From NCBI GenBank assembly GCA_051362555.1, contig CM120644.1, positions 25,070,534 to 25,134,533 on the forward strand: DNA of 64,000 bases, written 5' to 3'. The DNA comes from Lingula anatina (taxonomy: Eukaryota > Animalia > Brachiopoda). The notes under the pieces are model-generated. The model saw only the letters and a list, made by a program, of their open reading frames with translations. It had not been told where the DNA came from and searched no databases. This document shows positions 22,473-47,767 of the stretch, piece after piece (positions within the stretch are counted from its first letter, which is position 1; the number at the start of each line of letters is the position of its first letter). The position numbers were made by a program, and so were the translations under genes.

Positions 22473-23266
22473 CCACCCTCCATATACACCTTCCCACACA
22501 GATACGTCGTCCCTACAGCCACACACTCACAGGTTGTCGTAACTTAAAATTAGTTGCGTGCTTCTGTATTATATAGATGTATATAGTAATCTCAGTTAAT
22601 AACGGTCCTCAACATAACAAAGGAACTGTGCAGTTTCCGGTCCCTTTAACGCCCCGCTGCACACACCCCTCCCCGACCAAACACTCATTCTTCCACACAC
22701 ATTTTTCCCACACACACCCTGATCCCCCCATGCACACACAAACACGCCGTCGTGATTTGGAATTAGTCGCGTGTTTCAATATCACTTACATAAATATAGC
22801 ACTCCCAGCTGCTTGACCAGCTAGCGGACTACCCGTTATAAAGCCAATGTACGGTTTGTGAGGTTGAAATTTTCCAGGTTATCAATATGTATGAAGACAG
22901 TTGTATTTTTAACAAAGGTGAAAGGACAACAGAAAGTTACCAATGCATAATTCATATATTTCATTGTAAAATGAATTTCTTTGACAGTAATAGGGGAAAA
23001 GGAGGATAAAATGAAATTTACTTAAGAAACTGAATTTAATTTTTTTTCAGTGCCCCAGAAAGCGTCGTTGACTGGCGACTGTGTGAACAGATCTATAGAT
23101 ATTATGATGATATATCAAATTAATTTATAAAAGTAAATATATATTATCAATCACAACCAACATTTTGTTGCTCTCATGCTTCGATACATCTTGCTTCAAT
23201 ATCCCTGGCACAATCTGCACCCCCCCCCCCCAAAAAAATAATAATAATAATAAATAAATAAATAAA

Positions 23267-25331
23267 TGTAGCCGTATGAATGTATTTTCTTCACTCGTGT
23301 TCGTCTTTTGTTTTGTCACGTGGGCGTCATCTTACTCTCTCATTCCCATTGGTCATCTTTCCCGCCTTTCGTCGCTTATAAATATCGTCGCCGCCCTTTT
23401 TCTGTCATTGTTCTTTGCTCATCGCTCTTTATATATTTACAGGTACGTGTCAATAGTTTAATTCTTTTATGAATATTATCATTATTATTATTATACTTAT
23501 TATATATTAAGATTATAGCTATTAATAACATTATTATGATGATCGCACATTGTTCTTTGCTCATCGCTCTTTATATATTTACAGATGGTATGGAATAAAT
23601 AAGAACAAAGAGAAATAGACTTTGTTGTGAACCGTTGCATATGGCGCTGCGAGCAGTTTCTGATTTACATACCGAAGCATCGGCGGAATGAAGCTATAAA
23701 GATGTGTCATGATGATATGGCGCATGTTGGTAGAGACAGAACGATAGAGTTGATCAGAGATCGATTTTTTTGGAATAAAATGTATTCCGATGTTGCAAAT
23801 TATGTGGCTACTTGTGACAGATGTGTACAAAGAAAATCAATTTCAGATAAGGCACCCTTAGTCAGTATGAGTTCATCACAGCCAATGGAAATGTTATGTA
23901 TTGACTATTTGACCGTAGAAGATAATAAAGGTGGTATTGCCAATGTGTTAGTTGTGACAGACCATTTTTCCAGGTATGCATTGGCATATCCTGCTAAAAA
24001 TCAGACTGCGTACACTACGGCAAAGTTGTTGTATGAAAATGTGATTGTTCATTATGGTTTTCCGGCAAAAATACATAGCGATCAAGGAAGAAATTTTGAG
24101 AGTAGCACAATTAAACATTTGTGCGAAATAGGAGGAGTGACTAAAACTAGAACCACGCCTTACCGGCCCCAGGGTAATGGTACGTGTGAACGATTTAATC
24201 GAACATTGCTAAATATGATTGGTACTTTAGGTCAAGATAAAAAATCGGACTGGAAAAAGTACATTCAAAGTTTAGTTCACGCGTACAATTGTACAAAGAA
24301 TGATGCAACCGGATATTCTCCGTATTTTCTAATGTTTGGTAGAAACCCTAGACTGCCTGTAGATTTGACTTTTGGTCTAGATGAACAGAGTGGGAATACA
24401 GAGCACTCAGATTACATTAGAAAATTAAAAAGACGATTGCAATATGCTTATGAATTAGCTTTTAAGAATTCCGTAGATCTTAAAAGGAATAACAAAGAAC
24501 GGTTTGATAGAATGACGAGAGGAGCTGTCGTCCAGCAAGGAGATAGAGTATTGATCAGAAACTTGGGGTTAAAAGGAAAGAATAAGTTGGCTGATAGATG
24601 GAAACCTGAAGTATATGTGGTTGTAGAACAACCAAATAAAGATATACCGGTATACAAAATTAAAGAAGAAGGAGTCAAAAGTGGAACATTGAAAGTTGTT
24701 CACAGAAATCACTTACTTCCTTTACCTGTCGGAGGATTGAGGAAGAGTAGTGAGAAAAAAGTGCAAGTTGAAGATCCCTCCATTCCAAGGAGGTCTAAAA
24801 GGGAGAAGAGGATTCCAGAAAAATATCAAGGCTAACTTAAAGCTTTGATTAATTTAGTGTCATATTTTAATAAAAACTAGATCATTGTTGTATAGTGTTA
24901 TTATTATTTGTGGAGTGAATGAAATGTGCGGAGACATTTCTTTGAGAAGGGGGGTGAATGTAGCCGTATGAATGTATTTTCTTCACTCGTGTTCGTCTTT
25001 TGTTTTGTCACGTGGGCGTCATCTTACTCTCTCATTCCCATTGGTCATCTTTCCCGCCTTTCGTCGCTTATAAATATCGTCGCCGCCCTTTTTCTGTCAT
25101 TGTTCTTTGCTCATCGCTCTTTATATATTTACAGGTACGTGTCAATAGTTTAATTCTTTTATGAATATTATCATTATTATTATTATACTTATTATATATT
25201 AAGATTATAGCTATTAATAACATTATTATGATGATCGCACATTGTTCTTTGCTCATCGCTCTTTATATATTTACAGATGGTATGGAATAAATAAGAACAA
25301 AGAGAAATAGACTTTGTTGTGAACCGTTGCA
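23267..25331 (+). mobile_element. Ty3/Gypsy LTR retrotransposon, internally deleted (integrase only)
   Basis: LTRs 23267-23639 and 24959-25331 (373 bp, TG..CA, no difference seen by eye), TSD TAAA, PBS TGGCGCTGCGAGCAG (tRNA-Ser-like) at 23642, PPT at 24944-24958. Confidence 0.95.
23702..24835 (+). CDS. Gypsy integrase, intact ORF (377 aa from first ATG)
   Basis: HHCC finger (CHDDMAH...CDRC), catalytic D (CIDYL), D (HSDQG) and E 35 residues later (TCERFN), and a GPY/F-like C-terminal region. Confidence 0.9.
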   Translation: MCHDDMAHVGRDRTIELIRDRFFWNKMYSDVANYVATCDRCVQRKSISDKAPLVSMSSSQPMEMLCIDYLTVEDNKGGIANVLVVTDHFSRYALAYPAKNQTAYTTAKLLYENVIVHYGFPAKIHSDQGRNFESSTIKHLCEIGGVTKTRTTPYRPQGNGTCERFNRTLLNMIGTLGQDKKSDWKKYIQSLVHAYNCTKNDATGYSPYFLMFGRNPRLPVDLTFGLDEQSGNTEHSDYIRKLKRRLQYAYELAFKNSVDLKRNNKERFDRMTRGAVVQQGDRVLIRNLGLKGKNKLADRWKPEVYVVVEQPNKDIPVYKIKEEGVKSGTLKVVHRNHLLPLPVGGLRKSSEKKVQVEDPSIPRRSKREKRIPEKYQG

Positions 25332-25349
25332 TAAAAATACTATCTTAGG

Positions 25350-27450: not shown

Positions 27451-28753
27451 AAGTTCCCTAACAGCCCTCTACCCCTCCCCCCCCCCCCTCTCTCTCGCTC
27501 TAACACTGGAAAGCGACCCTTGTGCGACCATGAAACTAGCCAGGTCGCCGTTGGTGGCTCAAATAATGCGCGGTGATCGTACACAAAATCTTTACGCGTC
27601 GCCGTCGCCAGAATCGCCATAAAATTCTGTGCATGTTACAACAAACACACACATGACGCGGTGGAGGTTGGTCGCTGCTTGGTGGTTCACGACAAGCAGG
27701 AGGTGGCCTTAGTATCGATGCGATTGTATTGTCTCAGTTTTCATTATTGTGATTCTTTTATTTCTGTAGCTGTCCTTATTTATTTTTTACTTAACTATAC
27801 AGTCGGCCAATAAAATAATCCTCTCGCCATCCTGAGTCAGTTGTTTAACAGGTGTACCTAAGGGTGAAACATATTTTTTCCTCTGAGTCCAAAACATCAA
27901 TGGAAAAAATACGAAGACAAACTGATGATTCGAAGTAAAATAAGCATTTTTGGTGACGAAACAAGAACATGTATTAATTAAGATCAGTGATAATGTTGAT
28001 GTCATAGCCGTCACACATTGTGGCCACAATGCTGGAGGAAGCATCACATCTATATGATAATATATAATGAGCATCACATCTATGTGATAATATAGAATGA
28101 TGATGTTACCCCCCAAACTACAGTGCAATCAAATATGAAGGAAAACATGGCCAAATAACAGGGAAAATAATATCAATTTATTTTAGCATCATATTAATAA
28201 TAACATTTTAACAGAAGTGAAATTCACATACATTATCCCTAGAGTTAAAAACCAAGCATATGAGCCATTTAGAAACATGGCTTTCAATCAGCTGTCACTG
28301 CTGCACCTGAAGCAAGTGGCAAAAAATAAACACACATCGTAAATGATACAGTCTGATTTTCCTCAAAAGTGCCATCACAGATAAAACAAACAAATCGTAC
28401 AGCGGGTCTTCTCTTATTTCCATGTATAAATCATGCATTACAAACCAATTTACTGTGATATGAAGCCCAATAAATCGACCTTTCTCCATTTATACTCGGG
28501 AACCTTATAGCATATCCCAGCGTATACTATGTGATCAGCCCATGGACCTAATTCAAACATTGCACCACCACAATTGCACATTCTGTGGAAAAGTTTAAAA
28601 TTTAAAGTTTCCACAGCAATGATATTGTAAATTCTTGTTATTCATTATAAACATCTTATCAATTCTGGTTCTCTCCATCCATCTCTAAAATAAACATTTA
28701 ACAAAGTAATTACCTACATAATTAATTTCTCTATAAATTCATACTTCAGCACT

Positions 28754-29023
28754 GAGTATGTGACCATCCTGAGCCCCAGGGACAGATAAACACTTCACTG
28801 CCTCACACACACCTCACTTATTACTACTAATATAATCTATATTTCAACACAGAGTATGTGACCATCCTGAGCCCCAGGGACAGATAAACACTTCACTGCC
28901 TCACACACACCTCACTTATTACTACTAATATAATCTATATTTCAACACAGAGTATGTGACCATCCTGAGCCCCAGGGACAGATAAACACTTCACTGCCTC
29001 AAATACAACTCACTTATTACTAC
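28754..29023. repeat. 98-bp tandem repeat, ~2.8 copies
   Basis: Unit gagtatgtgaccatcctgagccccagggacag... starts at 28754, 28852 and 28950. Confidence 0.9.
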
Positions 29024-29655
29024 CAATAACTTCATGATTATTATTGCAACATCTTAAAGGGAGACATTAAAACTGAACAGGCTTTTTTTTTCTCAAGGTG
29101 ATCTGACAATTTATTTTGGTTCCTGCGTGATCTTATGTATCTAAAAACTGTGGAAAACTGGCTTATAAAGCACCGTTATACTTGAACTAATGCAGACTTT
29201 TATCAACAAACACGGTGCAATCGCATTTAAGAAAAATATAGACTGAAAACTTGCAACAGTTAATTACAGTGAATATCGATTTATGCATGCAATTTCACTA
29301 CACATTGCAGTTTTAAAAGCAGTAAGCGTCCGCTTTTAAACACCTACTAAACAATCATTCACAAAAACAAATTACATAGTTTTAGTCATTATTATAAAAT
29401 TAATGGAAATAAAGATAATGGCAAAAATACTGTTAAAGGCAAACTGAAAACGTTTGTATACAGCAGACTCCTCAGCCCACTAGGCATGCTTCAATAACAA
29501 TGTCAGAAATTGAACTTTGATCTTGAACATGTCCTTGCCTTAACCTAAATAAACGCATCATCCCAGAATCAAAACACATGCTTTACATAAACTCCAGACT
29601 TAACATAAAGACCAAAGTCTACCATTTTTGTGATACGATTATCGTAGCCCCCACA

Positions 29656-29795
29656 CTAGGCCATTTTGGTCATGATCTTCAGATACTGCAATGCATTGTG
29701 GGCTGCGTTGGCATGGCATTCGCCAGAGGTGGGTCCGCTGCCGTGACACACAGCAACTGGCATGGTGGACAGCTGCACCAAACACTGACGATGGC
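29656..29795 (-). CDS. TARBP2: TARBP2-like last exon (C-terminal half of dsRBD3)
   Basis: ttccag acceptor; GHRQCLVQLSTMPVAVCHGSGPTSGECHANAAHNALQYLKIMTKMA*. Not represented in the ORF track. Confidence 0.92.
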
Positions 29796-32700
29796 CTGGA
29801 AAGAGGCAAAATTACCTTGACAGAGAGAAGATACTGAGAGAGAGAATTATTCGACCAGAATCTAAGAATAAACACAGACAAATGGGAGAGAAAATGGAAC
29901 TGCCTCCAGATCACATTCTAAAGGAATTTACTCTAAATATTATTCTGCCCGTATCTTCATCATGAAGTGCCATGCTGAGAGAAGTCGGCGACCACGAGGT
30001 GCCATTTCTTCTCTGCCTGTAATAATTTTAGGGTTTCGTCGGCTGTTTTTGTTCCGAACCAGACTGCTACGCCATCTATTGTTTTATCTTTTTGTCTTCC
30101 TCTGCTTCTTTTGACCAAAATGTTTAATGTAGTTATTATGGCTTCCAGGCCGCTTTTTCTTATGCAGTGTCCGATAAAAGTACATTGTCTCTTTCTTACT
30201 GTATTTCTGTGATTTCTGCAAGATGGTATTTTAAGTGTTTGTCTGCAGCACCACATTTCAACTGCATTAATTTTATTTTTTTCGTGGAATTACTTATGGT
30301 CCATGCCACGCAGCCGTAAGCCATGATACGCCATATGCATGTATAGGTTAATTTTAAGTACTCTGCTTTCTTCCTATTGGCAATTTTGCGGTTAGTAAGT
30401 ACTGATCACATATCTTTTATGCTTTTTTTGCTTGTCAAATTCTGGTCTTTATATCATATGGAAAATTATATTAAACAATTCAACGCATTGAGAGTTATTC
30501 GGCTACTAAATGCGACCTACATTTATTACTGAGATCCCGCAAGTCATCATATGTGACCTCAATCAAAGCACTGTTCCACAGTTTAAGAAAGTGACCTACC
30601 TTTATAACTGAGCTCCTGCAGGTCAACATAGGTGACCTACCTATATAACTGAGCTCCTGCAGGTCAACATAAAGTGACCTACCTTTATAACTGAGCTCCT
30701 GCAGGTCCACATAGGTGACCTACCTTTATAACTGAGCTACTGCAGGACAACATAGGTGACCTACCTTTATAACTGAGCTCCTGCAGGTCAACATAGGTGA
30801 CCTCAAAGCACTGTTCCTCTGCTATCTCCTGGAGTAGTTGACAGAAGTTACTGCCTCGTGTGTTCAAAGAGGTGGTGTGCAGCCTGTTCAGCTTCTTTCC
30901 TGGACAGAAAATACAATTTCTCAAGTGCAAAGTTTATTAAAAGCCTTGCATGACTATTTAATCATAACATAGACCAATTTCTAATCACAATCGCGACTTG
31001 TGGCCTAAATATACTATACTGGCCAAACAAAGAAAGCAAGGTTTTCTTTTTACCACTGTGCTTCAAATAAACCAAAAATGCATGGATAGCGGTGTGTCAG
31101 ACAGCAGGTCAACATGTGACCTCAGAGCAGTAGACCAGACCAGCAGGTCAACATGTGACCTCAGAGCAGTAGACCAGACCAGCAGGTCAACATGTGACCT
31201 CAGAGCAGTAGACCAGACCAGCAGGTCAACACGTGACCTCAGAGCAGTAGACCAGACCAGCAGGTCAACATGTGCCTCAGAGCAGTGCACCAGACCAGCA
31301 GATCAACATGTGACCTCACAGCAGTGGACCTAATCAGCAGGTCAACATGTGACCTCAGAGCAGTGGACCAGACGAGCAGGTCAACATGTGACCTCAGAGT
31401 AGTGGACCAAACCAGGAGTATTTACCTGAGGCATTTTTGAGCTGAGTGTAGAATGAACTGATCTTTCTGCTGACAAAGGGAGTCAGGGAGGGTATTTTCT
31501 TCCCTTTCTTCAAGTCAGCATAGGCAGACTTACTGGAGTCCATCTGAAACAAAGGAGTGAAGTTTTATCAAAAGACGGATGCTGCAGACTTACAGGAATT
31601 CATCTGAAACACTGAAGCAAAGTATTATTAATAGACAAAATACCTCCTTCCAAACTGAAACAGATCTATCGACGTCAGTTTAGGGTAGAGTAGGAATGAA
31701 TGGAGGAATAGTAACTCATTAATTCAGGTCAGGTGGACAAAGTAATTTACCTGCCGATACAAAATGAAACCATGTCTTACCAGAGCATCATCATCCTCTT
31801 CCTCCCAGGGACAATCTAGATCTTCTTGCGACAGAGACGTCACGTCCACGGCCTGCATCATTTTCATGGCAGCATTGCACTTGGCTTTCTTCTTAGATTT
31901 CCCAGTGCCTGCATGGCAAACACTGAGCAGTTTAGAATTGTAATTCAGTGAATTCTTCGGTTGTCACGCCTTGTTCACACTTCAGACTAAAGTTGTATTA
32001 ATGGATTTAACAGACAATCAGGCAACATACAGTAGTTCAAAGCCAAAGTAACTTTGTACTCCCTGATTTTAATGGCTCTGTATTTCTGTATCATAAAACA
32101 TAGAAGCCACGTTGTGCTATTTACTATTTAACCTATTACACAGAGGAATTAGTTCAATAACCTATCCGTCACACCTATTTCACAATATACCAAATATAAT
32201 GTGCAACCTTTTAGATATGCATAAAATTCAAGTCACAAAATTCAAACATTATCTTCCAACTACCTTCCATTGCGACATAATGGATAACACAATCATTATG
32301 CCCATACACAACTCGGATGAGAATCAATGGCATTTCTGAGGAAGACTTCATTAAAATTGTGAACACATCGGGCATTTTAAACTTTGAATGATAAACTTAT
32401 TAATTCACCTCTTTTTGTAATCCTCCCCAGTTTCACATTGCACACAAACTCTCTATCGTGGGGAGGTCCCCTCACACTGGTTATCTCGTACTGCGGGGGA
32501 CTCAGTAGACGTTTCTGCGCTAACTCCTGCAGTTCTCCAACAGGGTTGTCTCCAGTGCCATCTACAGTACTGGTGGGAGCAGCCACTTCTCTGTAGCTAC
32601 TCTGTCCTATCATCCGGTTCAACACTGTCCTGGAACCATTGTGTTTTGCTCTCTCCTCGCTGGAGTCTTAAAGATGCACACAAAGTCAAATTTTTGTCAC

Positions 32701-35696
32701 AAAAACCAACCAAATGCCAGCATATAGTTTCAAGTAGTATAACTAAGAGAATTACCAAAAGGCATTGTTTAATTTTACCAAAAAATGATGTTTTAACGGA
32801 TTTTCTGCTGGCATTCTAAGCTGTATGTCAATGGGGCAGGAAAGTAGGTCATGAAAGTAGGTTAAATTTACAACCAAAAACTTAAAGAAAGGAGCAGTCT
32901 AAAGGTCTTTTATGGCTGATCAAGTGATCTATTCAGTTTATCCCTTGGCATGTCGAATTTATTTGAGTCATATAAGAATCTAGTAGAAGTGGTTTACATG
33001 TGTTACTGGGAATCCACGCTCCACCGATGCTCGGTTCGTATGTACCTTTAATTCACCACTCAGGGAGCTTTTGGAAGAGAATGGCATTTCTTAGGAAGAC
33101 TTCAGTAAAATTGTGAACACATCGGACAGTTTAAACTTTGAATGATAAACTTATTAATTCACCTCTTTTTGTAATCCTCCCCAGTTTCACATTGCACACA
33201 AACTCTCTATCGTGTGGAGGTCCCCTCACACTGGTAATCTCGTACTGCGGGGGTCTCAGTTGACGTCTCTGCGTTAACTCCTGCAGTTCTCCAACAGGGT
33301 TGTCTGCAGCGCCATCTACAGTAGTGGTGGGAGCGGCCACTTCTCTGTAGCTACTCTGTCCTATCATCCGATTCAACACTGCCCTGGAACCATTGTGTTT
33401 GGCTCTCTCCTCGCTGGAGTCTTAAAGATGCATACAAAGTCAATTTTTTGTCAAAAAAACCAACCAAATGCCGGCATATAGTTGTAAGTAGTATAACTAA
33501 GAGAATTGCCAAAAGGCATTGTTCAATTTTACCCGAAAATGATGTTTGAACGAATTTTTCTGCTGGCATTCTAAGCTGTATGTCAATGGGGCAGGAAAGT
33601 AGGTCACAAAAGTAGGTTAAATTTACAACCAAAAATTTTAAGAAAGGAGCAGTCTAAAGGTCTTTTATGGCTGATCGAGTGATCTTTTCAGTTTATCCCT
33701 TGGCATGTCGAATTTATTTGAGTCATATAAGAATCTAGTAGAAGTGGTTTACATGTGTTACTGGGAATCCACGCTCCACCGATGCTCGGTTCGTATGTAC
33801 CTTTAAGGTAAAAGGTTAATATTACGAAACAACATTCATCGCCTTTTACCCTCTTTGTTGATTGAAACATTTTCTACCAAAAAAAGTATGCTAAAGAAAA
33901 CACAGAATCTTTAAAAATCACATTATTATCATCCTTGAACATCAAGGTTTTAACTATTACATGATTTTTCATTAAAGTTGGAAAATTTAGTCTGAAAAAT
34001 GCAGAGTCAGACCACTTCAGGAGATCCAGTGTAAGTGCTCACCTTCATCGTCGCTGTGAACCCAAGCGGAATATTTAAAATCTAAAGAAAATTGAGATGT
34101 GTTATTAAGACAATGCAAGCTCTCCAACAAGATTTGGAATTAAATGCCTTACATATCAAAGATGTTGTTACTTGTGTAAGTCTAAATGTAAACATGCAAT
34201 TTGTATGAATAAAATGATCTGCCTAGCAATGTATAACAAAATCGGAAAAAAATTAAAGCACCCAAGTTCAATTTATTGCTAGCTGTACCTTAAGGGTGTG
34301 GCTCTTTGGGTGTGTCTGCTGGGCACTATACCCACCACTTAAATTGTCTGTCGTTGGTCATTCAACTTCCCTGGGACTCTAAGGAACATTTTACAGTTAT
34401 TTTTAGATTAACTTTTGGTGCATGCTAGCCGGATTTCCACCCCCTATAAATCAGGGTCTGCCGGCCACACCCCACCACTCAATTTGTCTGTCAGTATCTA
34501 TTTAATATACCTGAGACCATGCTAAAAGAACCCCAATAGGTTTATAAGGGTTCCCCTAAAAAGTCTAGCTAGCTGGATTTGAGGGTCTTTGTTTTGAACT
34601 CCCCACCCCGACCACACCCACCACTGTAAATACGGCAGACTGACATTTTCATATAAAGGTAAGCATGTAGGTCACTGCCAGGTACAAAAAAATTGGTAAT
34701 CTTTCGGGCATACGCAACCCTCTTGAATCCTTCTCTACTATACTTACACTCTTGATCTGAAAGAAAAGATATTGTAGATGAATAAAGATTATTAACTTTA
34801 AAAAATGTGAGCACCCTCCTACTTTTATTGAGATATAAGGTTTTTAAATATCTTTTAAAATATCCTTAAAATATTAAAATATCTTTAAACATCTGGGGAG
34901 TATTTGCCAATGTAAAAATCTTAATGAAAATTGGAAGTTGAAATTGGATAAACTGTTTCCAATTTGCCATGTTAACCAAAAGTGCACACAAATTATTATT
35001 GAAACACTGCAGTTTAATGTTCATAATTTAAAGGTTGACATGGGTACGTTTTGTCATTTCTTGATTTCTTCAATACTTACATTCTCTGACTGAAAAAAAA
35101 ACATGTTGCAAATGTAGATTGATGGATATAAAATGGTGAAAAGTCTACTTACTGTAAGATTTCGTCCTGGCATTTACATGTACAAGTCTTATGTATAACT
35201 TTACCGTTTGGATAAAATGGCTCCCGAATCACAAGGTTTACCAAAAATCTACACAATTATTTAAACAAGCAATACAAATCTATTTTACCTGTTATAAGGG
35301 CTGGCAAATATATCTGTAAATGTGTTCTAATTTCATCAATACTTACCACCAAAATCCCCTGGAAAAAATGTATTGTGGATGAAGATAAATGTTATATGAA
35401 TAAAAAATTCCAACTCTTGTAAGTTTTTCTCTAATTGAGATATCAGTTTAATATCATTAAACATCTAGAATCTAGTTACTTTTGTAAGTCTTTATAAAAT
35501 AATGCAAAAATTATTTCCAATGATCTCCCAAAATCGTACAAAATTATGTAATCAAACTACCCCATTCCTATTTTCTTTTTTTTTAAGTTGACTGAAATAT
35601 ATATAATTGATCCTGGCATTTTTCATACTTACGTGTTGTTCTCCTGACTGAAAGAAAAAAAATATATATATATATATAAATATATATATAAATATT

Positions 35697-35753
<57 letters not shown>

Positions 35754-35904
35754 CAAGCGTGAATGTGGAACAGAGTGCTCAACAGTACGGAGCATTTGTA
35801 CACAATTAAAATTAATAAATAAATAAATAAACAAAAGACATGCATGTCTTTTGTTTATTTATTTATTTATTTTAATTGTGTGTGTGTGTATATATATTTA
35901 TATA

Positions 35905-35963
<59 letters not shown>

Positions 35964-37969
35964 AGATTTCACATATTGTAAATTCTCTTCCTATCCTTAT
36001 CGAGGTATGAAGTTAAATATGTCGTAGGGTTTCCAAAATGTAATTGCTTGTGTAAAAAAAATCTTTTTGAAATTATGCAACTATAGCATTCTGCTAAAAT
36101 AACTGCCAAATCACAATCTTCACAGAAAGCTTACAAAACAATTTTAACATTGGTAAAACATAGTTCATCTTCCCTTTTTATTGATATAAATGTGTTTTAA
36201 TTTTCCTTGTTTCCTCAATACTTACGCCTTGTCACTGAAAGAAAACAATATTGTAGATGAATATAAATGTAACATTAATGAAGGTTTCACTTAAAACATT
36301 CACAAGCCTAGAATTTAGTTGCCTCTGTAAGTCTTAATGATTATATGCAATTTTATAAATTATATGAATACAGTGGTTTCTGCTTTACAATGTGCAAAAA
36401 AACATACAAAGTTATGTTATCAAAGCATTCCAGTTTCATTTTCCTTTTTAAAGTTATCAAGACCAAATTTCATTGTTCCTGTTTTGTACATACTTACATG
36501 TTCTTGACGTTACTGAAAGAAAAAATATCCAGATGAATATAGATTTATATTGAATTTTTAAATTATGAATGCATTATGAATTTTAAAATCCCACATATTG
36601 TAAGCTCTCATACCACCTATATCCGGGTTTGGAGTTTAATACCTTCCATATCTTATAAAATGCAGTTGCTCTTGTAAGTCTTAATGTAAATATGCAATCT
36701 GTATGAATAGAATGGTTTCTGCGTAGCAATGTACAACAAAATCGTACAAAGTTATGTCATCAAAGCATTCCACCTTTATTTTTTTTTTTTTAAGTTAACA
36801 AGAATATTATCCATTGTTTCTGCTTTGTACATACTTACATGTTCTTGATGTTACAAAGAAAAAAATATTGCAGATGAATATGGATTTATGATGAATGAAA
36901 TTCCATTCATTGTGAGCTCTCCTCTTACGTATACCCTTATCGAGTTATGAGGTTTAATATATTCAGATAACTAAGATGTACTTGATTAGGTAAAATTATA
37001 AATGAAATTATCCATATCGGAGTTTGGATAAAATGACTATCAGGTCACGATGTTTCACCCTGAGCTTCAGAGATATTAGTAAGCCTCTTCACTATAGCCT
37101 ATCTTCATCGTGTCAAGTTACCTCTGACCACATTCGATTGCCCGCACCGCCCGCCAATCAAATTTAAAGCCCGCCCTCAATGACTCATTGAACGATCTAG
37201 CCAATGAACGCGAACGAGTCAAAGCGCACTTTGTTCAAATCCGGACCAATCAAAGATAATGCTGAATATCAGGGACTTGCCGTAACCTGTGGACAGTACG
37301 CAAAATACGTCATCCCTCATCATCCCTCAGTAGATAATGATGCAGGGCCTCAAACTGCTCTGGTTTCAATTCCGATATACTCATATTTTGCAAAGAATCA
37401 AGAGATAACTTAACACATTCTTTTACGTAGTCACTGGTAGGAGACGCCATGCTTTTTTTTTTGTGTGTGTGTACGGTTATGCACTCGGAACTACTCGGAT
37501 GTCTTCGCACTCGACAATAACATCGTTGTTAGTATGGAGCTTGCGGAATCAGCCGAGGAGTGCCGATTGACGGTAATGCGGACGCAACGAAATACAATTT
37601 TCTCGTTGGACATAATTCTGGACTTTCAACCAATCAGCGTTTCAACAAATTTTGGTGAAAATGTTTGAAACATGGATTCGATTGGCTTATATAAACTAGG
37701 TCAAACTATTTTCGTCAGAAGTAACTTGACACGATGAAGATAAGCTATTGTGAAGAGGTCAGTGTCAAGTTATCTCTGAAGCTCAGGGTGCCATGTTTGC
37801 AAAAAAGAGTACACAACTATGTTTTCAAAGCACTGCAGCTCGGTTTATATTGTGACAGGATGTCAAATTTATCTTTTACTGTTATTTATTTACTTAATGC
37901 TTACCCTTTCGTTGGATCTCAGAAATGCTCTATGAGAAGGTAGAATTAATGCTTACCCTCTCTTTCCAT
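29656..37969 (-). CDS. TARBP2: TARBP2/PACT/Loquacious-like dsRNA-binding protein with a remodelled N-terminus. Exons: 37957-37969, 36498-36512, 36226-36234, 35633-35647, 35347-35358, 35081-35089, 34748-34756, 34043-34081, 33163-33420, 32409-32666, 31781-31908, 31426-31543, 30765-30899, 29656-29795 (385 aa if all included)
   Basis: dsRBD2 (NPVGELQE..PPQYE...GPPHDREF...GTGKSKKKAK), Loqs-like linker (IPSLTP..ISSFYTQLKNASGKKL) and dsRBD3 (LLQEIAEEQCFEVTYVD...QCLVQLSTMPVAVCHGSG...AAHNALQYLKIMTK). All junctions are GT-AG and phase-compatible. The 3' exons are secure; the 5' micro-exons are inferred. Confidence 0.85.
29955..30450 (-). mobile_element. RTE-clade LINE 3' remnant in the last intron
   Basis: KINAVEMWCCRQTLKIP...KRQCTFIGHCIRK...KRSRGRQK resembles the RTE ORF C-terminus; degenerate. 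Confidence 0.75.
30591..30803. repeat. 41-bp minisatellite (5 copies) made of the exon 3' end plus splice donor
   Basis: Unit ctacctttataactgagctcctgcaggtcaacataggtgac at 30596, 30637, 30679, 30720 and 30761. Confidence 0.92.
30765..30899 (-). CDS. TARBP2: TARBP2-like exon (N-terminal half of dsRBD3)
   Basis: GKKLNRLHTTSLNTRGSNFCQLLQEIAEEQCFEVTYVDLQELSYK; phase 1-1. Confidence 0.9.
31103..31413. repeat. 39-bp minisatellite, 8 copies
   Basis: Unit agcaggtcaacatgtgacctcagagcagtagaccagacc. Confidence 0.92.
31426..31543 (-). CDS. TARBP2: TARBP2-like linker exon
   Basis: MDSSKSAYADLKKGKKIPSLTPFVSRKISSFYTQLKNAS; phase 0-1. Confidence 0.88.
31781..31908 (-). CDS. TARBP2: TARBP2-like exon (dsRBD2 helix 2 + acidic linker)
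   Basis: GTGKSKKKAKCNAAMKMMQAV...EEEDDDAL; phase 1-0. Confidence 0.9.
32409..32666 (-). CDS. TARBP2: dsRBD exon, copy B (258 nt, phase 1-1)
   Basis: SSEERAKHNGSRTVLNRMIG...NPVGELQELAQKRLLSPPQYE...VKLGRITKR; intact splice sites. Confidence 0.85.
33163..33420 (-). CDS. TARBP2: dsRBD exon, copy A (258 nt, phase 1-1)
   Basis: Tandem duplicate 754 bp away; open frame, intact splice sites, several amino-acid differences (TQRRQLR vs AQKRLLS). Confidence 0.8.
34043..36853 (-). other. Micro-exon array (15, 9, 15, 12, 9, 9 nt, then a 39-nt exon) in ~270-340-bp homologous intron units, plus one dead copy at 36839-36853
   Basis: Each micro-exon is bounded by a T-rich ...cag acceptor and a gtaagta donor. 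Every length is a multiple of 3. The intervening introns share sequence. Confidence 0.75.
37056..37790. mobile_element. Non-autonomous TIR element with 8-bp TSD (hAT- or P-like)
   Basis: caccctgagcttcagagata...tatctctgaagctcagggtg with ~70-bp imperfect TIRs; flanks cgatgttt / ccatgttt. It splits one of the micro-exon intron units. Confidence 0.85.
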
Positions 37970-39099
37970 TTTCACCTGTCAGCCTCCTCTCACGTAGAAC
38001 TTGACTGAATGTTAATAAGATGAGAAATGGGTTCGACGTCTGTCTGACTTCACAATGTGGGTACTACTGGACGAGAAGACCTAAGAACAACGAAAGTGCA
38101 TTAAAATGTCGAATTATATCATTAAGAAATCAGTGTTAATTTTATGAAAAGTGGTTGAATTGTGATTTACATGTGGAATTATGCCATTAAGAAGTTAGTG
38201 TTTATGTCATAAAAGTGGTTAAATGGTGATTTTAAATTACTTCTAATCTTATTAAAAGCATTTCCAGAGTATATCAGCCAAAAAAGAAACGCAAGTTTTT
38301 CACCCTTTTTTTGGTTTTAATACGCGTTTTCATACATGTATAAGAATAGTGCATAAATGGTAGTGTATTGTTCAGGAACACGTGTGCCCTCCTCTGGCTG
38401 CTGTAATACAGCCTAGTACCATCCTCATGGACCACCAAAAAAGCTAAAGTCAGTTCCTTAGTTGACTAGGATTTCCTTCAGGGTGTTGTTATGTCACTGA
38501 ATACAGTGATCATTACTTGACTAGCATGTGCAGTTTTCGGTTATTTTGAATCACAATGTCAAAACAAAAACTTTCGTTTCTTTTTCTTTTTTTTTTTTTT
38601 TGGGGGGGGGGGGAGCAGTATGTAATAATATTACCTAATGAACTAAACCGTTAACAAAAAGAGTTATAATCAAAAATAATAAAATGATAACATACTAATA
38701 TAACATACTAAAGTCCAGATTCATAAATAAATATGAAATAAAAAATACATAAATAACTACTGTAGGTTAATTGAAAAGGCAGATAATGTGAAAGGTGTGT
38801 TGATAATACTGTTGCTTACAATGGTTTACATCATACTGTACATTTAACAGAATCCATGTATTTTGTTACAGATGGCAATTTTTCTTCAGGTTCTTTGCAT
38901 TAATCATATACCTTTCTTGAGATTCTTTGGGGCATTAATATAACAGTACTCAAATCAAAACATTAGGTAACCAAGTTTTTTATAGCACGTTCTTAACAGG
39001 CAGTAACCCATCCTTAGACAGGACTAACACGAACTGGGAGATAAGAAACGGGGCCTTGCTTGGAAAAAAGACGTGATCTCTGATTTACACTGCACCTTA

Positions 39100-39580
39100 C
39101 TCAAGAAGCCGACCTGCAAACATTTCAGTTTAAGATATATCATGTTATCTATTTTACTATCGGCTGGAGGCTCACTGAGTCACGGTTATGTACCTTTTGC
39201 CAAATTGAGACCGAAAAATCCATACATTTATTATTGGAATGCGTTCACGTACAGAACATATGGGCATTCTTGAAAACGATGAATTACAGCTCCAGTGGAA
39301 ACTACAACGGTTGGAGTTAGGTGTCACTGATAACAGGCTACCGGTGTAACGTGACAGAGAGTTCCCCATAACAGAGAGTCCGCTTCCCATTTATTTGCAC
39401 ATGTGAGCCTGGTGAGCCTAGATTTTGACCAACTTAGGTCAGACTAACCCTAACCATTATAACTATAAGGAGGGCGGACTTTCTGTTACACGGACCCTCA
39501 GTTACCTTACACCGGGTCTTCATACCGTTATATTACTCATTAAAAATTTTATAATGATGTGTAGAGCTAGAACTGAGATA
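39100..39580 (+). mobile_element. L1/Tx1-clade LINE ORF2 C-terminal remnant
   Basis: FQFKIYH...LCTFCQIETEKSIHLLLECVHVQNIW (CX2CX7HX4C) at ~39123-39263, resuming as VILLIKNFIMMCR after an insertion. Confidence 0.7.
39345..39511. mobile_element. Ginger1-like non-autonomous element
   Basis: TGTAA...TTACA termini, imperfect TIRs, CCGG on both sides (the reported Ginger1 target preference). Confidence 0.65.
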
Positions 39581-39648
39581 CCTAATGCATTAATATTGGA
39601 ATAATGCCACCGCACATATTAAGACTTATCGCAACATTGACCTGTGCT

Positions 39649-39682
<34 letters not shown>

Positions 39683-40602
39683 AGACTGATAAAAGAGCGC
39701 AAATTATCAATAACTGGAACAGCGTCACAATGTTGACATAAACCCCTCTTAACTGATAACTCTCTATAACTGACAATATGTTTAGTGTATTTTTATCTAC
39801 CTATTTCTTTACTAACGCATCAAATGCTGTGGTGCTTATGTATGCCCAGTGTCCCTGTATGTACCGAGCTATGTAGATAATATTTATAACAAGAAAGGGA
39901 AAGTATGTGGAGTTATAATGTATATATACAGTATGTACGTTCAATCTCAATGGATTATCTTTTCAATGAGGATCGTATGTTTGTTATATCATACGCTGTA
40001 TGATGGTATATGTCCCTAGGTCTGTATAATGGATATGAAGCTTTGTACGGTATTGAGATATGCTCACTTGAGAACTACCATGATTATAGACATCATTTTG
40101 CAGAAGTAAAAACGTAGTTAAACGTTAAAAGGTAATAAATCTGCATCTTTCTGAAAACCAGTCAAGTTTTCAGTCTATTCATTAGACCATAGTCACGACG
40201 ATGTCCGCTTGGTGGCACTGCGGTGACTGGTGGGTCACGTGAAGGTCTGACAGAGGGATTTGCATTTTTTAACTCAGATTTTTGTCAGAAAAAAAGGGCG
40301 ACGAGGTCCTTAGCCCTTCGAACATCATCTGAGTGAACATGACTCTTATATATTGTGTTGAGAAAGATACATTTTACTTTAATAATGTATGTGTTAAGTT
40401 ATAACACATATATAAAAGATTGACCCCCTATTGGAGTACGGTTTTCTTGGTAAAGGATAGAGATAAGGAGTAAATGTACATTAATGTTGACTCTACATAA
40501 TGCATAATATATTTAAATATATGGCCTATGAAAATGCCAAAACCTTCCTCACATTTGGCAAACTTTTTTAATCTAAATTTATCTTCATGGAAACAAACTT
40601 AC

Positions 40603-40770
40603 CTGTTGCAATTAGCAGATATATGGGAGAACGGGTCAAATGTAGCGTATATTTGGAGCTTTGGTCCTGGACTAATGTCGACAGTGAGTCTTCCTGGTCT
40701 CAAAGTGCGGTGGTCACATGACATGTGATCACGTAACAGTGATAAGGTGGACTCGCGTCTGATTATATAT
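40603..40770 (-). promoter_or_regulatory. Candidate non-coding first exon/promoter of the TARBP2-like gene
   Basis: Strong CAG|GTAAGT donor at 40603, an Ets-like CAGGAAG and an E-box cluster GTCACATGAC/CATGTGATCACGT at ~40713-40734. It could splice to the acceptor at 38081. Confidence 0.3.
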
Positions 40771-40813
40771 ATATTTTTTTCCTTGAGTCACAAAAAATAA
40801 TAAGGTTTAAATT

Positions 40814-41098
40814 CAGTGGCGGATTTAAAGGGGGGGATCAGAGGGGTCCTGACCCCCCCCCCCCCCCCCCCCCCCATTGATTTCTGAAAAAAAATCAAAC
40901 CAATGGCCCCCTCTTGAAATTAGAATTTTGACTTGCTGAATCATAGTTATAAACCGTACCAAGTCGTTCTCTACAGTACAAAGAATTTTCGGGGCCCATT
41001 AGCGGTCTCCGAGCCCCGGGCCCCACGCCAAGGAGGGGGGGGGGGGATTCTGCGGACCCCCCCCCCCCCCTTTCAAATAATCCTGGACCCCGCCCCTG
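40814..41098. mobile_element. hAT-like MITE with 5-bp TSD
   Basis: CAGTGGCGGATT...GACCCCGCCCCTG with AAATT on both sides. Confidence 0.75.
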
Positions 41099-41374
41099 AA
41101 ATTGTTTGTAATCTTTTAAAGGTAAAATAAAATACTACAATGTGTAAACCGTTTGTTTTATCTACAACACTTATTTTATGTGGGAAATTTAAAATACTTA
41201 ATTAAATACTAAAATGCCAACTGAATAATACAACAACCTTAAAGAACATAACCAGTTTGTTATGTGGCGTCACTTTATTTCGTGTCGATTATCTCCGCGC
41301 CGTTCTCTATGGTGTAACTGCAATGACAATGTCGTCTGCTGCGGTGTCAATGTTTTAGAGAAGTCAATTGCTAA

Positions 41375-41595
41375 AGCCCCCTCTACACTGGACAGCGTCC
41401 ATTCTGCGTCCCGTTGTACGGCCCCGTTTTGAGAGTAAAAAATAGAATGCTTTTACGTGCCGACGCCTGGCGGATAAATGGGCATTCTTTCTGCAACCAA
41501 AGCGATGCTTGTGCCTCCTTTCTACGACCACAGCGATGCCAGTTTTATGGTCGCACAAAGGACGCAGAAGGACGCCATCCAGTGTAAAGGGGATT
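41375..41595. mobile_element. PIF/Harbinger-like MITE
   Basis: TIR agccccctctacactggac../..tccagtgtaaaggggatt, TAA TSD; second copy at 63157-63369. Confidence 0.8.
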
Positions 41596-41736
41596 TAAGG
41601 TGTATAATGTAGTCACTGTCATAGTCATAGAGATGTCTCATCTCAAGGCTCCGTATCTCGAAAGCATCGCGAATAAGGTCGCGCGTCAAGGTTATTTTCA
41701 GTTGCACCCTGGATTACGCACGCTTGCTCCGCAAGG

Positions 41737-43734
41737 CATGGGCGTAACTAGGCATACGCACGGATGCACTGTGCGTACAATTTTTTTGAGCCAATCACGA
41801 TATTATTCTCTATAAATTTAGTGTATTTTCACGAAAAATCCTCTTCGATTGCAAGTAAGAGTCACCTGAATGTACAAATCTTCTGTATGAATCGTATACG
41901 CACCATTGTTCTGACGCCCCCCGTCTCGTTTGCTTTCACAGAACTAAGGTAAATAAACAATACTAGCTACCTCCAGAAGTCCTATCTTAATCATCCATCT
42001 AGCTGGAACTTCCTTTACCTCTTAATTGGAAGTTTGAATGCCCTTCAACTCTCAGGTAGCCTTTGTCTTAAGTGTGTCGAATGCACACTCGATGGCGATA
42101 TTTATCTCAGATAAAAATCTACCTGTGTTATTTTCAAACAGCAGCTCCAGCAGACCTGAGGACACTAGATAAAATCTGGACAACGGGCTTTATAAGGAGC
42201 CAGAGAAACAAAAAAAAATATATTTCCTGCAAAACTGTAAAGAATTTTGACACGGACTTGACCCAGCTTAACCCTCTAAACTAACAGGGTGATATGGGCA
42301 ATTTTCACAAACAAACAGAGCTTTATCCTGTAATATAATTGGTTGATTTTGGATGATACCATATATAAGTTCAACTTTTAGAAGATTCATCTTTAAGCTG
42401 ACCATGGACATGACGAATAATATAGCAAGAAGGTGTAAGAATCCTTCAACGATCAACTGTTCTTAAGATTATTTTCTGACAACTAGGGATAACCGCAACA
42501 AACCACATCGAACAAAGGTGCCTCACCGTTATTTAGAATTTAGCTTGATACAAGCGGGCATAATTTGCATATGTTTTCATAGTTTGTGTCAGTAAGCCCC
42601 TAGTTCAATAAATATACCATTCTAAGCAAGGCTTTTTTCAGCGAGTCCTCCAGCTGCCAATTGGACGGCAGCTGATTAAAAAAGTCTTAACTTGTCGGGG
42701 CAGCTGTGGACGTCGTATGAAAATCCATTGCAGTAATTTGACGTATGAATATTAAACTTCTTTCTAGTGCACGGTGTTTTTCAGTCACGACGTAACTACT
42801 ACCTAAAGCTTACAAAACACAATAAAATGTTTCCATTAACTTTAAAATACATAATGCAGAAGTGACAAGAATGATCTACATTCGGTACAAAACACGTGTA
42901 GGCCCTAAATGAAATATGACCTAACTTGCCGCCAAATTATGAAAGGGGACACCTTTCGGATCTTTATACGTATGGCATCTGACAAAGCTAATACATAAGA
43001 AAGGCAATTTTTATATCTTCGGCGAGAGATTCTTCGCAATCCGAAACAGACTAGAAGGCAATTTTCATATTTGTTCAAGAGACTTCGTTAACCGAGGATC
43101 GGGAACAAGAGATAGTTACCGACCGCAGCGAGACAAGAAGCCAATTTTCGTATCTTCAGCGGGAGATCGAGCGTGATCTGAGCGAACAGAGAAAGCGATT
43201 TTCACATTCGTTCAATGGACTTCGTTCGCAGAAGGTTGTCAGCCAGAGATCGTTCGCGATCCGAGCGAGACGAGAAGGCAATTTTTATATTCATACAAGG
43301 GCGGTCTTTCGTGGAAGAGCGTGACGGGAGATCGGTATCAATTATTTTTAACCCTCTTTCCCAATGAAATTTATTATTAAAAAAAGACTCCATTAATTTG
43401 TACCCCACCCCCACCCCCGCTCACGGCTTTTGGAAAAGTTTGAGGCCCTGAAATTTTGAAGTAAGATACAGATGGCAATTATGGACGGCCTGCACCCCAA
43501 TGCCGGAAAAAGCGTTGGTTCTGGGTGAAATAATTTACTGGAACTTAATTATACTGTGGGAATATTTTAAACTTTAAGTAATGATTTTATAAACGGTGAA
43601 AACTAAGCTATTATATTTGGCACATATAATTTAAACTGCCCTTCATCTTTTGCGTAAGTCGATCTACATTTAGCTATACCTGGGAATTTTGAAATTCTGT
43701 GCGTACAATTTTAAAAGGTCTGGTTACGCCCCTG
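41737..43734. mobile_element. 2-kb non-autonomous hAT-like element with 5-bp TSD
   Basis: CATGGGCGTAACTAG...CTGGTTACGCCCCTG with CAAGG on both sides; internal degenerate repeats at 42990-43340. Confidence 0.75.
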
Positions 43735-44873
43735 CAAGGTGTCGCCTGTGGTGGGGGGGGGGGGGGGGCATCACAGCCCATATGGTTACTGTGGCGAAGG
43801 TGACAGGTACTTCCAAACATTTTTTCATAACTGTCATTTTTCCTTATTCTATTCATGAATTTGATATTTACGGCAATTGAAAATGTGGCACCGGCAAAAG
43901 TGAATCTAGGTGCGTTGACAGGCCGCACAGGTGTCCCCAATTAACCGCCGCCAGAGAAGAGACCCCAAGCATTAAACAACACAACCTGTAGATATTGGAA
44001 ATTTGGAGAAAGTTAAGCAACTGAGGCTTTATTAGATTTGGACAGAAATCGGGGGTAATGCCCAGTGACATGCCAAACCCCTAAGTTCAAGTCTTGGCCC
44101 TTGACACCTGTAACGCACCCCTTAGTCAAGAATCTGAACAAATCAATGTTGGGCAGGTACAGGGTATACTTTATTTTTGTGATTTTATCAACTTGATTGT
44201 CAAGTGCCAGACTTTTTGTTCTCAGGTACTAGTAGCAAACTTTATCAGATAACAATCTGACACTAACCAAGCTGCACTAACAGCGCTGTAAACCCAGTTA
44301 TCAATGCTGTCATCTTTACCTGCATCTTTACCGGTATTATGCCAGTGGTACGTTTGATACATTTGAGTAAGGAAATATGCTTTTATGCTTACATTCATTT
44401 GTAATACGTTAGCATTAACCTGTTAATAAAAACTTGGAAACTTTCAATGTTATTACACAATAACACTATAATGATGGGAGATGTTATGATTAAATGCTTA
44501 CAAGAATAATAAAAACAAATTATGTGAAATATAAATGAATTGATTTTATTTGGGTTATTTATTTATTTATTTCAAACCAATTAATTATCAAACATGAAGC
44601 TTATTTTAAGAAACATTCACAGATATATGAAATATAACCCTGCTGGTACACAGATCTACAGTTCTAAAATGCAAATACCAAGTACCTTTCACACACCACT
44701 CATGAGATGTGAATAATCATATGTATAAAGTAGTAAAAATATCACAAAATGTGTGTAAGCAAGATATTTCTACAAGTAACCTCATTAATCAGTCAGGAAA
44801 CTTCATAATGCACCCAATAAATGTAGAAATTTGAGCCAGAGAAATTCTACATACAGGCATGACAGATTTACCA

Positions 44874-46286
44874 TATATTGCCATCAACCCTTAACTGAAT
44901 GGGCATAGAAAGAACAAAGTGAGTCTCCCTCCCATTAAAAATGAAAAATAAAAATAAATAAATAAATAACAGATACTGTCATTCTTAATACTGAAAAACA
45001 ATGGCACCTTGCAGCCTTCACTGCCTCACTATTTGCAGACAATGTTCTAGTCACTGTAACTGTGTAGTTCTGATGAGGCATAGATGCAAGAATAACTTCT
45101 TTGAAGTATATTGTGAAGGTCTCTTTTGTCATAAATCTGCCACATATAACCTGAATGTACATATTGCGATTCACACCACAGCAGCTTGTCTTAGTAAGGA
45201 CTCAACCAGTTTGAAAACTTGTGGCATAGCTTCAGGACAAGATCACACCATCTATCCTTGCTGTGATGATGGATCTACTAGTACATTATCTATGTCTTGT
45301 CCTCCTAGTTTCTCTAATACCATTTCCCCTGATCTATGCTCACATCAATCTCTACAGCTTTACCAACTGCTACACAGTTTTTACATCTGAAAGTATAAAG
45401 CAAAAATTGTAATAAAGCACTATCAATTTACTTGTTAGATATTGATTCGAGGGCAAGAGAAAAATGCAGAAACCTCATATCATAATCAAGATAATTGAAA
45501 ATCAAATATGCATAATCAAATTAATAGCTTTAATTGTACATACTACTGATGATTTAATCTTTTAAACTTCAGCATAAATTTCTCTTGTTAAAGCATAGAC
45601 ACTTTATTAAAATGTGCTTGAACAAATAATAATAATAATAAACAACCTGCACACAAGATGGAATATGGAGGTCAATTGCCACAAAATAAGTTGATTTGTA
45701 CTTGGTAGCCTGAGAAATAGTATCAGGTATTAATTTGAGCAGTAAATTGAGTAATAATACCAAAGAGTTAACAATGACACAAGCATATGGTGCTGTGTAA
45801 CAAAATTCATGCATTACTTGCTGTGGCAGTGTCCTCCTCAACCTATCGTGCACCGCAGGTTTTGATTTTCAATGTCATCAAAAATGTTTATTGTTGTTAG
45901 TTTGATTTACGTATCTTCTATTCAAATAATATCGTTTGGAAAATAACTAACTGATTTAATTATGCTTTTGCAACATGAAATCATCATTAACTTTGCCGGT
46001 TCGCGTGTATACAGTACCTTGCTATCAGTGCTGCTCTTTTCTCCCTAACTCGTCACTGACAGGCTAACCACATCGTTTCAAAACAACGTTGGTATGCTCC
46101 TTTACTTTTGGTGTTGGCAGTTTCGCCCCGGGGACATCGTTTTTGGTTAAAAACAACGTATCGTTTTCACCCATCTATACATTGCTCCTGTACAAAATGG
46201 CCGCTTGCTGCCCCCCCAAGGGGAAAAATCGTAGCACGTGGGTAGTTACGCAAGACCTGTGACGTATAACGCGCGCAAGGTTATTG
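44874..46286 (+). repeat. Dispersed ~1.4-kb repeat, copy 2
   Basis: Matches 3032-4440. Confidence 0.9.
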
Positions 46287-46428
46287 CGACCGAGCGCAAC
46301 CGTCTCTATTCCATAACTTGGGGTTTACACTCCCCATATAATAGCGATATCACATAGAGGCTACAATGTATTATATGGGACGAGTATAGGCGAGTTATGG
46401 AATCGAGGCGCTTGCGCTCGGTCGCAAT
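46283..46428. repeat. Hairpin/MITE-like inverted repeat
   Basis: attgcgaccgagcgcaa...attccataact vs agttatggaat...ttgcgctcggtcgcaat. Confidence 0.75.
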
Positions 46429-47494
46429 GCGCGATGCTTTCGAGATACGGAACCCTGGTCTGTCTGTGGGTTGAGGTGTGGTAGATGCGACGACGCCACC
46501 ACAACAATTGAGAAACAACCCTCAAGGCGATCGTATTGGCTTTTCTTCTGTTTGAAAGGGATATTTAGCAATCGAGGCAAGGCTACATACTGCGTGGAAT
46601 ACTGACTGTCGTGGAGCTTCTCTCCGTGCTCAGAGGAAAGGGAGATCATTTCTAAATTTAATTGTGTGCTTTGGTAATATAGTAAAAACAGGAACATAAG
46701 AAGTGTTTTATTGAATTGGAGAAAGACGAAGACGATTAAAACAAGAACGTTAAATGTCGATGCGATACCAAAAAATGTCAAATTTCAGCGATAACTCCGA
46801 GTCCGTGATAGAGTCTCAATCTTTTCCGCATCCTCAGCATCTCTGACGTAGAGTGGCCGATTAATGTATTTGTTGTTCAGGAATATATTTACTCTTTATA
46901 ATTATTATTATTTATTGAGCACTAAAATCTGAACAACTTACATTTTACAGGCCTATATCAAATCCTAGAACATATATCTTAATTTTTACTTATTCCTGAT
47001 TCTTATTCAGACAGAAGACCAGAAATATTTACTTGCCAATATTTGTCATTATATTATCCCACTGAGACACTGGGGTTGACAATAGCGGTACATATACCGA
47101 CCAGGGTTGACTGAGTTCTACACAGTCACTCAGCACAGTTGCAACCGGTCATGTAACAATACAATCACAATCACGTCACTCTCAGGGGCACACATGTTTG
47201 TTGTTTCTATGCTTTTAGTCTAACAAATAATTGTTACACGCTTACATTGTTTCTCAAACAAGTTTTCAATGTTTTCTTTCAATTTTGCGTCAACTTTGGA
47301 CCCAACATAGGCTTCTATTGAAGAACGCCTTAGACGCTATTATATCATGTTTAATGAAGCCGCGGTTCGCCAAACAGTCAACATGTAAATGTTTCCGCCA
47401 CATAAATGCACTGCTTTGGTGGAAAATAAAAGAATTGCAGCGTTCTTTGGCTGAACGACGTGATTACTGCTGGTGAAATCAATGGAGACAAATG

Positions 47495-47767
47495 GAGGCG
47501 GGCGGAGAAGCAGGCGGATCTTCCTTGTGACGTCATACGTGATCGTACGCGTTACCATGGCTACCTTAACGCAGTAGAAGGGCATTAAACTCATATCCAG
47601 TTGAATTTAAATTTATAAATGGATTTATAATATGGATTGATAAATGACTAAGCATAAGAAGCATTGTCGCCCTTCATCCATATTAGCGACAAACCTTGGT
47701 ACATACGGTCTTACATTGCTTATGGGTTATTATTCGTTACTTAAGTTTTCAGCAATTTGCAATTACC

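Follow-up and report, generated by a model that had tools for sequence, protein, structure and literature searches.

A 64-kb stretch of the genome of the lamp shell Lingula anatina (Brachiopoda), hereafter the window, carries on its minus strand an array of eight homologous introns (positions 34082–37950), which separate candidate micro-exons of 9–15 nt and lead into a truncated paralog of TARBP2/Loquacious. The introns align lengthwise, indicating that the array grew by tandem duplication of an intron+exon cassette, as an earlier note on this DNA had proposed. On balance, we favor the explanation that the array belonged to an older gene and was later fused to a truncated TARBP2 copy, selection on it being now apparently relaxed.

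After three insertions were removed, the pairwise identity of the eight introns averaged 0.60 (range, 0.55–0.73), compared with 0.43 ± 0.008 (maximum, 0.44) in 10 shuffled control sets. Seven units measured 257–326 nt without insertions, and the eighth was shorter (229 nt as trimmed). When a profile built from the eight units was used to search the 64 kb, it matched only those eight (nine pieces, E ≤ 6e-19; next match, E = 2.1). The homology of the units and the confinement of the profile matches to them agree with the earlier note, both on the shared intron unit and on its origin by duplication of the cassette. The unit tree had no well-supported fork, and it gives no order of duplications beyond one closely related pair of micro-exons (36839–36853 and 36498–36512). 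A branch-like motif, TTCAT, was observed at −22 to −24 in five units besides unit 4, in which it has been displaced. The units, together with an element bearing terminal inverted repeats (TIRs) and target site duplication (TSD)-like flanks, are as follows:

36854..37904, minus strand: unit 1 intron, interrupted by the TIR element
37056..37790, no strand assigned: non-autonomous, high-copy TIR element with 20-nt perfect terminal repeats and 8-bp TSD-like flanks (7/8 match)
36513..36838, minus strand: unit 2 intron, 326 nt
36235..36497, minus strand: unit 3 intron, 263 nt
35648..36225, minus strand: unit 4 intron, with a (TA)n-flanked insertion at ~35662–35958 that displaced its TTCAT motif
35359..35632, minus strand: unit 5 intron, 274 nt
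35090..35346, minus strand: unit 6 intron, 257 nt
34757..35080, minus strand: unit 7 intron, 324 nt
34082..34747, minus strand: unit 8 intron, carrying a repeat insertion at ~34290–34727

The interruption of unit 1 by the TIR element, which had also been described in the earlier note, was confirmed; we presume that this element is hAT/P-like. Contigs from two DNA runs of different studies (X1 and X3) were compared with the window at ≥85% likeness, and contigs across the TIR element junctions were found on the left side in X1 and on both sides in X3. The depth summed over the X1 and X3 contigs was 64–166 over the units and ~1e5 over the TIR element; summed contig depth is no copy number, and only this thousandfold contrast is relied on. 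Thus, the unit is low-copy in these two animals at this likeness, as well as across the whole window, and is not a satellite or transposon. The earlier note had named a widespread satellite or transposable element as the finding that would overturn its view; instead, depth was low in both animals and the window held no other copy. A decayed satellite or transposon, with splice-like motifs and 3n spacing (lengths in multiples of three) produced by chance, is accordingly a very improbable origin of the units. The AT-rich repeats, the lack of RNA support and a 14–19% chance of stop-free reading would fit such an origin, but the low depth, the absence of another copy, the focusing of conservation at the donors and an ATG linked in frame to TARBP2 exons do not, and at ≥85% likeness it is already largely refuted. 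As a separate observation, contigs of X1 and X3 occurring in pairs at the same place within 35970–39000 often differed ~2:1 in depth, which may mean that the locus is present three times or that animals were pooled.

Seven candidate micro-exons of 15, 15, 9, 15, 12, 9 and 9 nt were recognized, all of them 3n in length, as the earlier note had stated, and all in phase 1. Six were preceded by a pyrimidine tract and CAG, the exception being the seventh (36839–36853), referred to here as the "dead" copy. The predicted exons of this region are:

37957..38080, minus strand: exon A, predicted 5′ exon, with a phase-1 donor at 37956
37905..37956, minus strand: 39-nt insert flanked on each side by one copy of a 13-nt direct repeat, which duplicates the exon A donor
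36839..36853, minus strand: "dead" micro-exon, 15 nt, its acceptor lacking 2 nt in the window and X1 and being an intact TAG in X3
36498..36512, minus strand: micro-exon m1, 15 nt
36226..36234, minus strand: micro-exon m2, 9 nt
35633..35647, minus strand: micro-exon m3, 15 nt; inner non-3n AGs would give 11 or 8 nt
35347..35358, minus strand: micro-exon m4, 12 nt, with the most diverged core
35081..35089, minus strand: micro-exon m5, 9 nt; another AG would give 5 nt
34748..34756, minus strand: micro-exon m6, 9 nt
34043..34081, minus strand: 39-nt exon, predicted fusion point, with a unit-type acceptor and the apparent frameshifted tail of the canonical first double-stranded RNA-binding domain (dsRBD1) exon

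The donor sequence is GTAAGTAT in all seven cases, against a drift of ~40% in the introns. Within the intron interiors, 20% of the ungapped columns were invariant and the longest invariant run was 3; at the base-specific rates of these interiors, and with GT excluded, an identical 8-mer at 7/7 donors has a chance of ~1e-4. A strict micro-exon signal detected 6 donors in the 3.9 kb of the array and 1 in the remaining 60 kb, the latter where an ordinary TARBP2 exon begins. Every one of the 128 in-order subsets of the micro-exons was stop-free. Among 179 short pairwise gaps between the introns, 19% were 3n, giving two to three independent length changes that are all 3n a chance of ~0.04 or ~0.007, respectively, in a test for which the number of events had to be guessed and the gaps are interdependent; this bears out the selection on frame suggested in the earlier note. 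The gapped identity of the micro-exons averaged 0.73, a value that is unreliable at such short lengths and does not demonstrate that exon cores diverged faster than introns. From these features we infer that the micro-exons were spliced, and very probably this past splicing was under selection. Selection would have preserved donors, acceptors and 3n lengths amid the drift of the introns, so that splicing in phase 1 would allow any subset to be skipped without a frameshift. The earlier note held that the array "is or was" functional: selection on splice sites and frame upholds the past tense, and the present tense finds no support in the RNA.

The ATG of exon A (37969–37967) has a strong context and an in-frame stop closely upstream; use of the second copy of the exon A donor (37904) would yield a stop. 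Phase 0 was rejected because of stops, and phase 2 because, while open across the micro-exons, it leaves exon A without an ATG and the 39-nt exon with stops. A 10-nt micro-exon signal at 31534–31543 was rejected because a normal exon begins there. The presence of TGC close to the acceptor, which we assume to be a mark of SRRM3/4-type neural micro-exons, was dropped as a criterion since it was found in only 2/7 units. Further upstream, 40603–40720 (minus strand) is a possible exon with a strong donor near 40602 and E-box-like motifs, and could be the first exon of the array gene.

The dead micro-exon is identical to m1 at 14/15 nt, with TTTG in place of TTTCAG at its acceptor, matching the near-identity and the 2-bp deletion that had been noted previously. 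The single difference between the two is synonymous in the phase-1 frame. At this site X1 has the letters of the window, and in X3 the sole contig listed has TA added behind 36854, restoring an intact TAG acceptor. With an intact TAG in one of two other animals, loss of the acceptor is not fixed, and the dead copy is a variant, with the deletion in 1/2 other animals, rather than the preserved fossil that it had been taken for. The X3 contig differed from the window at 19 of ~489 letters (~4%), which exceeds a published heterozygosity of 1.6% (PMC4595640), and it may therefore represent a diverged allele or a second locus.

Downstream of the array, the exons of the host, which the earlier note did not name, match RefSeq TARBP2-like proteins of L. 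anatina, and exon 33163–33420 shows 93% identity to XP_013392191.1 (tarbp2-like); the canonical Lingula gene corresponds to XP_013380589.1. The exons of the paralog are:

33163..33420, minus strand: TARBP2 exon copy 1, 258 nt, phase 1/1, containing dsRBD1 helix 2 (EERAK for KKxAK) and most of dsRBD2
32409..32666, minus strand: TARBP2 exon copy 2, from a 754-bp tandem duplication, 95% identical
31781..31908, minus strand: TARBP2 exon with dsRBD2 helix 2, KKxAK kept
31426..31543, minus strand: TARBP2 linker exon
30765..30899, minus strand: TARBP2 exon with the start of dsRBD3
29656..29795, minus strand: last coding exon, with the end of dsRBD3 (Staufen_C-type) and the stop

The reading frame is open from the ATG at 37969 through the six micro-exons and the 39-nt exon to the normal stop, and would encode 299 amino acids (aa), or 385 aa with both exon copies; the modelled open reading frame (ORF) includes an in-frame 27-nt deletion. 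The first 27 residues of the modelled head comprise 7 R, 5 T and 4 E, with no hydrophobic run. KKxAK is one of three RNA-binding regions of the domain, the others being E and GPxH (PMC11309768). All three are retained in dsRBD2 of the paralog. Only the last helix is left of dsRBD1, its KKxAK being changed to EERAK, while two such motifs are kept in 109/119 homologues, and no dsRBD1 exon was found upstream of the paralog in the window. Paralog-specific changes of this helix in 33345–33420 (K to E, K to E, K to R and Q to R) remove or shift charge. In human TRBP, Dicer is bound by the C-terminal domain (PMC2685382); the Staufen_C match was below the Pfam cut-off for the last exon alone and above it for XP_013392191.1. 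The predicted protein would bind Dicer, have a single RNA-binding domain and begin with a short, Arg-rich head that exon skipping could vary.

A search for proteins with the modelled head gave two RefSeq models only, with no Lingula transcript-derived protein among the 120 matches listed, a weak negative. XP_013403518.1 contains the 39-nt exon and supports that exon alone, its first three residues mapping to 34520, in the repeat of unit 8 and outside the array. Micro-exons of 9 nt are often missed by annotation (PMC8831610), which fits their absence from the RefSeq models. An Rfam search of 28000–48000 gave no match. The paralog also carries, within 30514–33806, four more tandem duplications that cross exon borders: 754 bp (32326–33051 / 33080–33806), 60 bp at an acceptor (31524 / 31584), 39 bp × 8 immediately past a donor (31098–31415) and 41 bp × 5 spanning a donor (30591–30803), the last offering several alternative donors.

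The junction between array and paralog is predicted to lie in the 39-nt exon. When this exon was compared with the back-translated end of the canonical dsRBD1 exon, its score was reached by 2/1000 shuffles in each of two schemes and by 0/271 other 15-mers, the fit having been spotted before the test was designed. The intron that follows is not a unit. At least 17 fixed differences in ~160 nt (~10%), a lower bound counted from the differences listed, separate the paralog from canonical transcripts, and the units differ from each other by ~40%; the array is therefore several times older than the paralog, and origin in an older gene is the simplest reading. Fusion of such an array to a partial TARBP2 duplicate appears reasonably probable. 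The duplicate would have begun close to where the dsRBD1 exon ends and joined the acceptor of the last unit, and a small compensating deletion would have rescued the frame. The 299-aa product would have a head of 27 residues rich in Arg, Thr and Glu, then a dead dsRBD1 helix, dsRBD2 and a Dicer-binding dsRBD3, and would act like TRBP/Loqs with one RNA-binding domain.

Alternatively, the array could be an old part of the 5′ region of TARBP2 itself, an alternative first-exon path that passed to the duplicate before most of the dsRBD1 exon was deleted; the locus would then owe nothing to a second gene. The same 39-nt exon would result if a deletion ran from the unit 8 acceptor to within the dsRBD1 exon, and contigs 4–8% off the window over the array (X1 and X3) could be a second locus. 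However, the canonical models begin with an unrelated Pro-rich N-terminus, and among 266 proteins, sharing of more than one 5-mer with the head is limited to XP_013403518.1, and there to the 39-nt exon. The RNA data comprised six runs, 6–30% of each being read and none having a tissue assignment; four of them (three studies) were checked on the dsRBD exon, and two (X16 and X20) on exon A. No reads from exon A were found in X16, and X20 showed nothing clear (depth 0.34 in one bin), at 85% likeness, whereas sister runs show the canonical gene. We regard this alternative as unlikely.

With fusion of an older array as the favored reading, the present state of the gene can be assessed. In the four RNA runs, reads over the dsRBD exon carried canonical letters and junctions, and at the diagnostic site 33295 the window letter was found in 0/130 reads (upper 95% bound, 2.8%). 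The fixed differences listed were 14 non-synonymous and 3 synonymous, which, with 23% synonymous sites, is near the neutral expectation; two sites variable among the canonical reads were both synonymous. The two exon copies differed at 13/258 positions (8 non-synonymous and 5 synonymous changes), and their flanks at 22/468. Residues differing from the canonical protein were fewer in dsRBD3 (7/89) than in dsRBD1/2 (31/122; P = 0.001), a similarity that gene conversion could have caused. The gene is probably a young chimera under relaxed selection, and we consider it fairly probable that constraint is relaxed at present: micro-exons would be in the course of being lost, one of them still variable between animals, and the gene would be silent or nearly so in the sampled RNA.

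A chimeric gene that is active in a restricted tissue or stage, like Aedes loqs2, and serves as a Dicer partner whose head is varied by exon skipping, is a less probable reading that we nevertheless keep in view. Consistent with it are the intact 299-aa ORF, the 27-nt deletion being in frame, the conservation of dsRBD3 above dsRBD1/2, the retention of all three motifs (E, GPxH and KKxAK) in dsRBD2, the existence of RefSeq models for this type of gene, and the 6–30% sampling of RNA runs that have no tissue assignment; loqs2 is itself nearly confined to reproductive tissues (10.1101/2021.12.21.473503). Against these stand the 0/130 window-type reads in four runs and the lack of clear exon A reads in two more, a 14:3 ratio that fits neutrality, a dsRBD3 likeness that could stem from gene conversion, one acceptor in the process of being lost, and one displaced branch-like motif. 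It is somewhat more doubtful still that this is a living chimera serving Lingula as a Dicer partner, in which a skippable older array has replaced the first dsRBD of TRBP/Loquacious with a splice-tunable Arg-rich head and exon number still varies between animals.

Several points count against the explanation that we favor, namely an older array kept by selection, fused to a TARBP2 copy and now relaxed. The parental gene of the array was not found, and no remnant of a host gene was recognized downstream. No spliced read passed through any micro-exon, where read placement probably cannot seed on 9–15 nt. Stop-freedom was reached in 14–19% of shuffles, m1, m3 and m5 contain alternative non-3n AGs, and the 3n test has the weaknesses given with it. 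In the X1 contig, 0/18 differences listed (of 20) fell inside the 64 nt of exon and splice zones, and this avoidance is not significant (P = 0.12). The X3 contig with the intact acceptor may be a second locus and not an allele. Regarding relaxation, the 14:3 count covers only the differences listed, and the intact ORF together with the better-kept dsRBD3 argues against simple decay.

Other features of the window were noted. Next to the paralog lies the following repeat, which is presumably Kolobok-like:

33422..33806, no strand assigned: high-copy repeat with TTAA at both ends, within the acceptor of the next exon, the acceptor being unbroken

In each RNA run ~100 reads fell on the 35 nt at 38457–38491, their loose ends being the same at either side; DNA depth was also raised there, and we interpret this piece as a fragment of an expressed repeat. 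The plus-strand gene at 54273–56471 contains a Death domain (Pfam PF00531, E = 4.5e-6) and a frame of 480 residues rich in coiled coils. The region 731–7406 holds a 2.3-kb inverted duplication (731–3036 / 4828–7141, 98.5%), and a 1.4-kb repeat is common to 3032–4440 and 44874–46286 (95%). An integrase-like frame (23603–24835) within 23265–25333 is flanked by two identical 377-bp direct repeats, and we take this to be a recent, internally deleted long terminal repeat element. A tandem array of ~163–166-bp units with higher-order duplications occupies 60325–62713.

How micro-exons arise is mostly obscured, since the introns around them can no longer be aligned. In this array, eight introns that still align make exon births, length changes and one loss that differs between animals readable at a single locus. 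If the gene is expressed, a micro-exon module has moved onto an RNA-silencing cofactor and replaced an RNA-binding domain; if it is silent, the locus documents a known process in good preservation, and its interest is modest. Among titles and abstract openings, we found no paper on this locus and none pairing Lingula anatina with microexon; the term TARBP2 did not occur in PMC13121700 or its three supplements.

As far as the cited texts describe them, several known systems resemble parts of the locus. In tandem exon duplication (PMC9741552, PMC12992808), too, adjoining exons are homologous, agree in phase and have had their splice sites copied along with them. The duplicated exons of PMC9741552 substitute for one another in a mutually exclusive fashion, whereas the Lingula exons are only 9–15 nt, would be additive or skipped, and have a whole intron alignable in eight copies. 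The micro-exon genes (MEGs) of schistosomes (PMC4350168, 10.1101/2023.06.21.545858) share nearby transposons and runs of tiny, mostly 3n exons, a design that permits variants differing by few residues. In MEGs, however, micro-exons form most of the coding region and the products are secreted with a signal peptide, whereas in Lingula six micro-exons account for 69/900 coding nt, the composition of the head shows no hydrophobic signal, and the host belongs to the intracellular dsRNA-binding proteins. A comparable case is troponin T, which has a same-phase, alternatively spliced set of 5′ exons that varies the N-terminal region; unlike the Lingula array, these exons are old, conserved and expressed, and the cited text describes no intron homology between them (PMC2447309).

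The host gene itself resembles TARBP2, PACT and Loquacious in its dsRBD2 with three RNA-binding motifs and its C-terminal Dicer-binding domain (PMC2685382, PMC11309768), but those proteins have three dsRBDs with an intact dsRBD1, which the Lingula paralog lacks. Like loqs2 of Aedes, it is a young, fast-evolving, lineage-specific paralog (10.1101/2021.12.21.473503). That gene arose from two dsRBD1 copies and has a demonstrated function, whereas the Lingula gene, which is predicted from sequence, retains dsRBD3, has no intact dsRBD1 any more and has acquired a head of micro-exons. Finally, the locus is like the "tinkering loci" (10.64898/2026.08.09.743762) in that a duplicated gene fragment has landed among abundant transposons and become linked to exons unrelated to it, although in the Lingula case a single fragment is seen.

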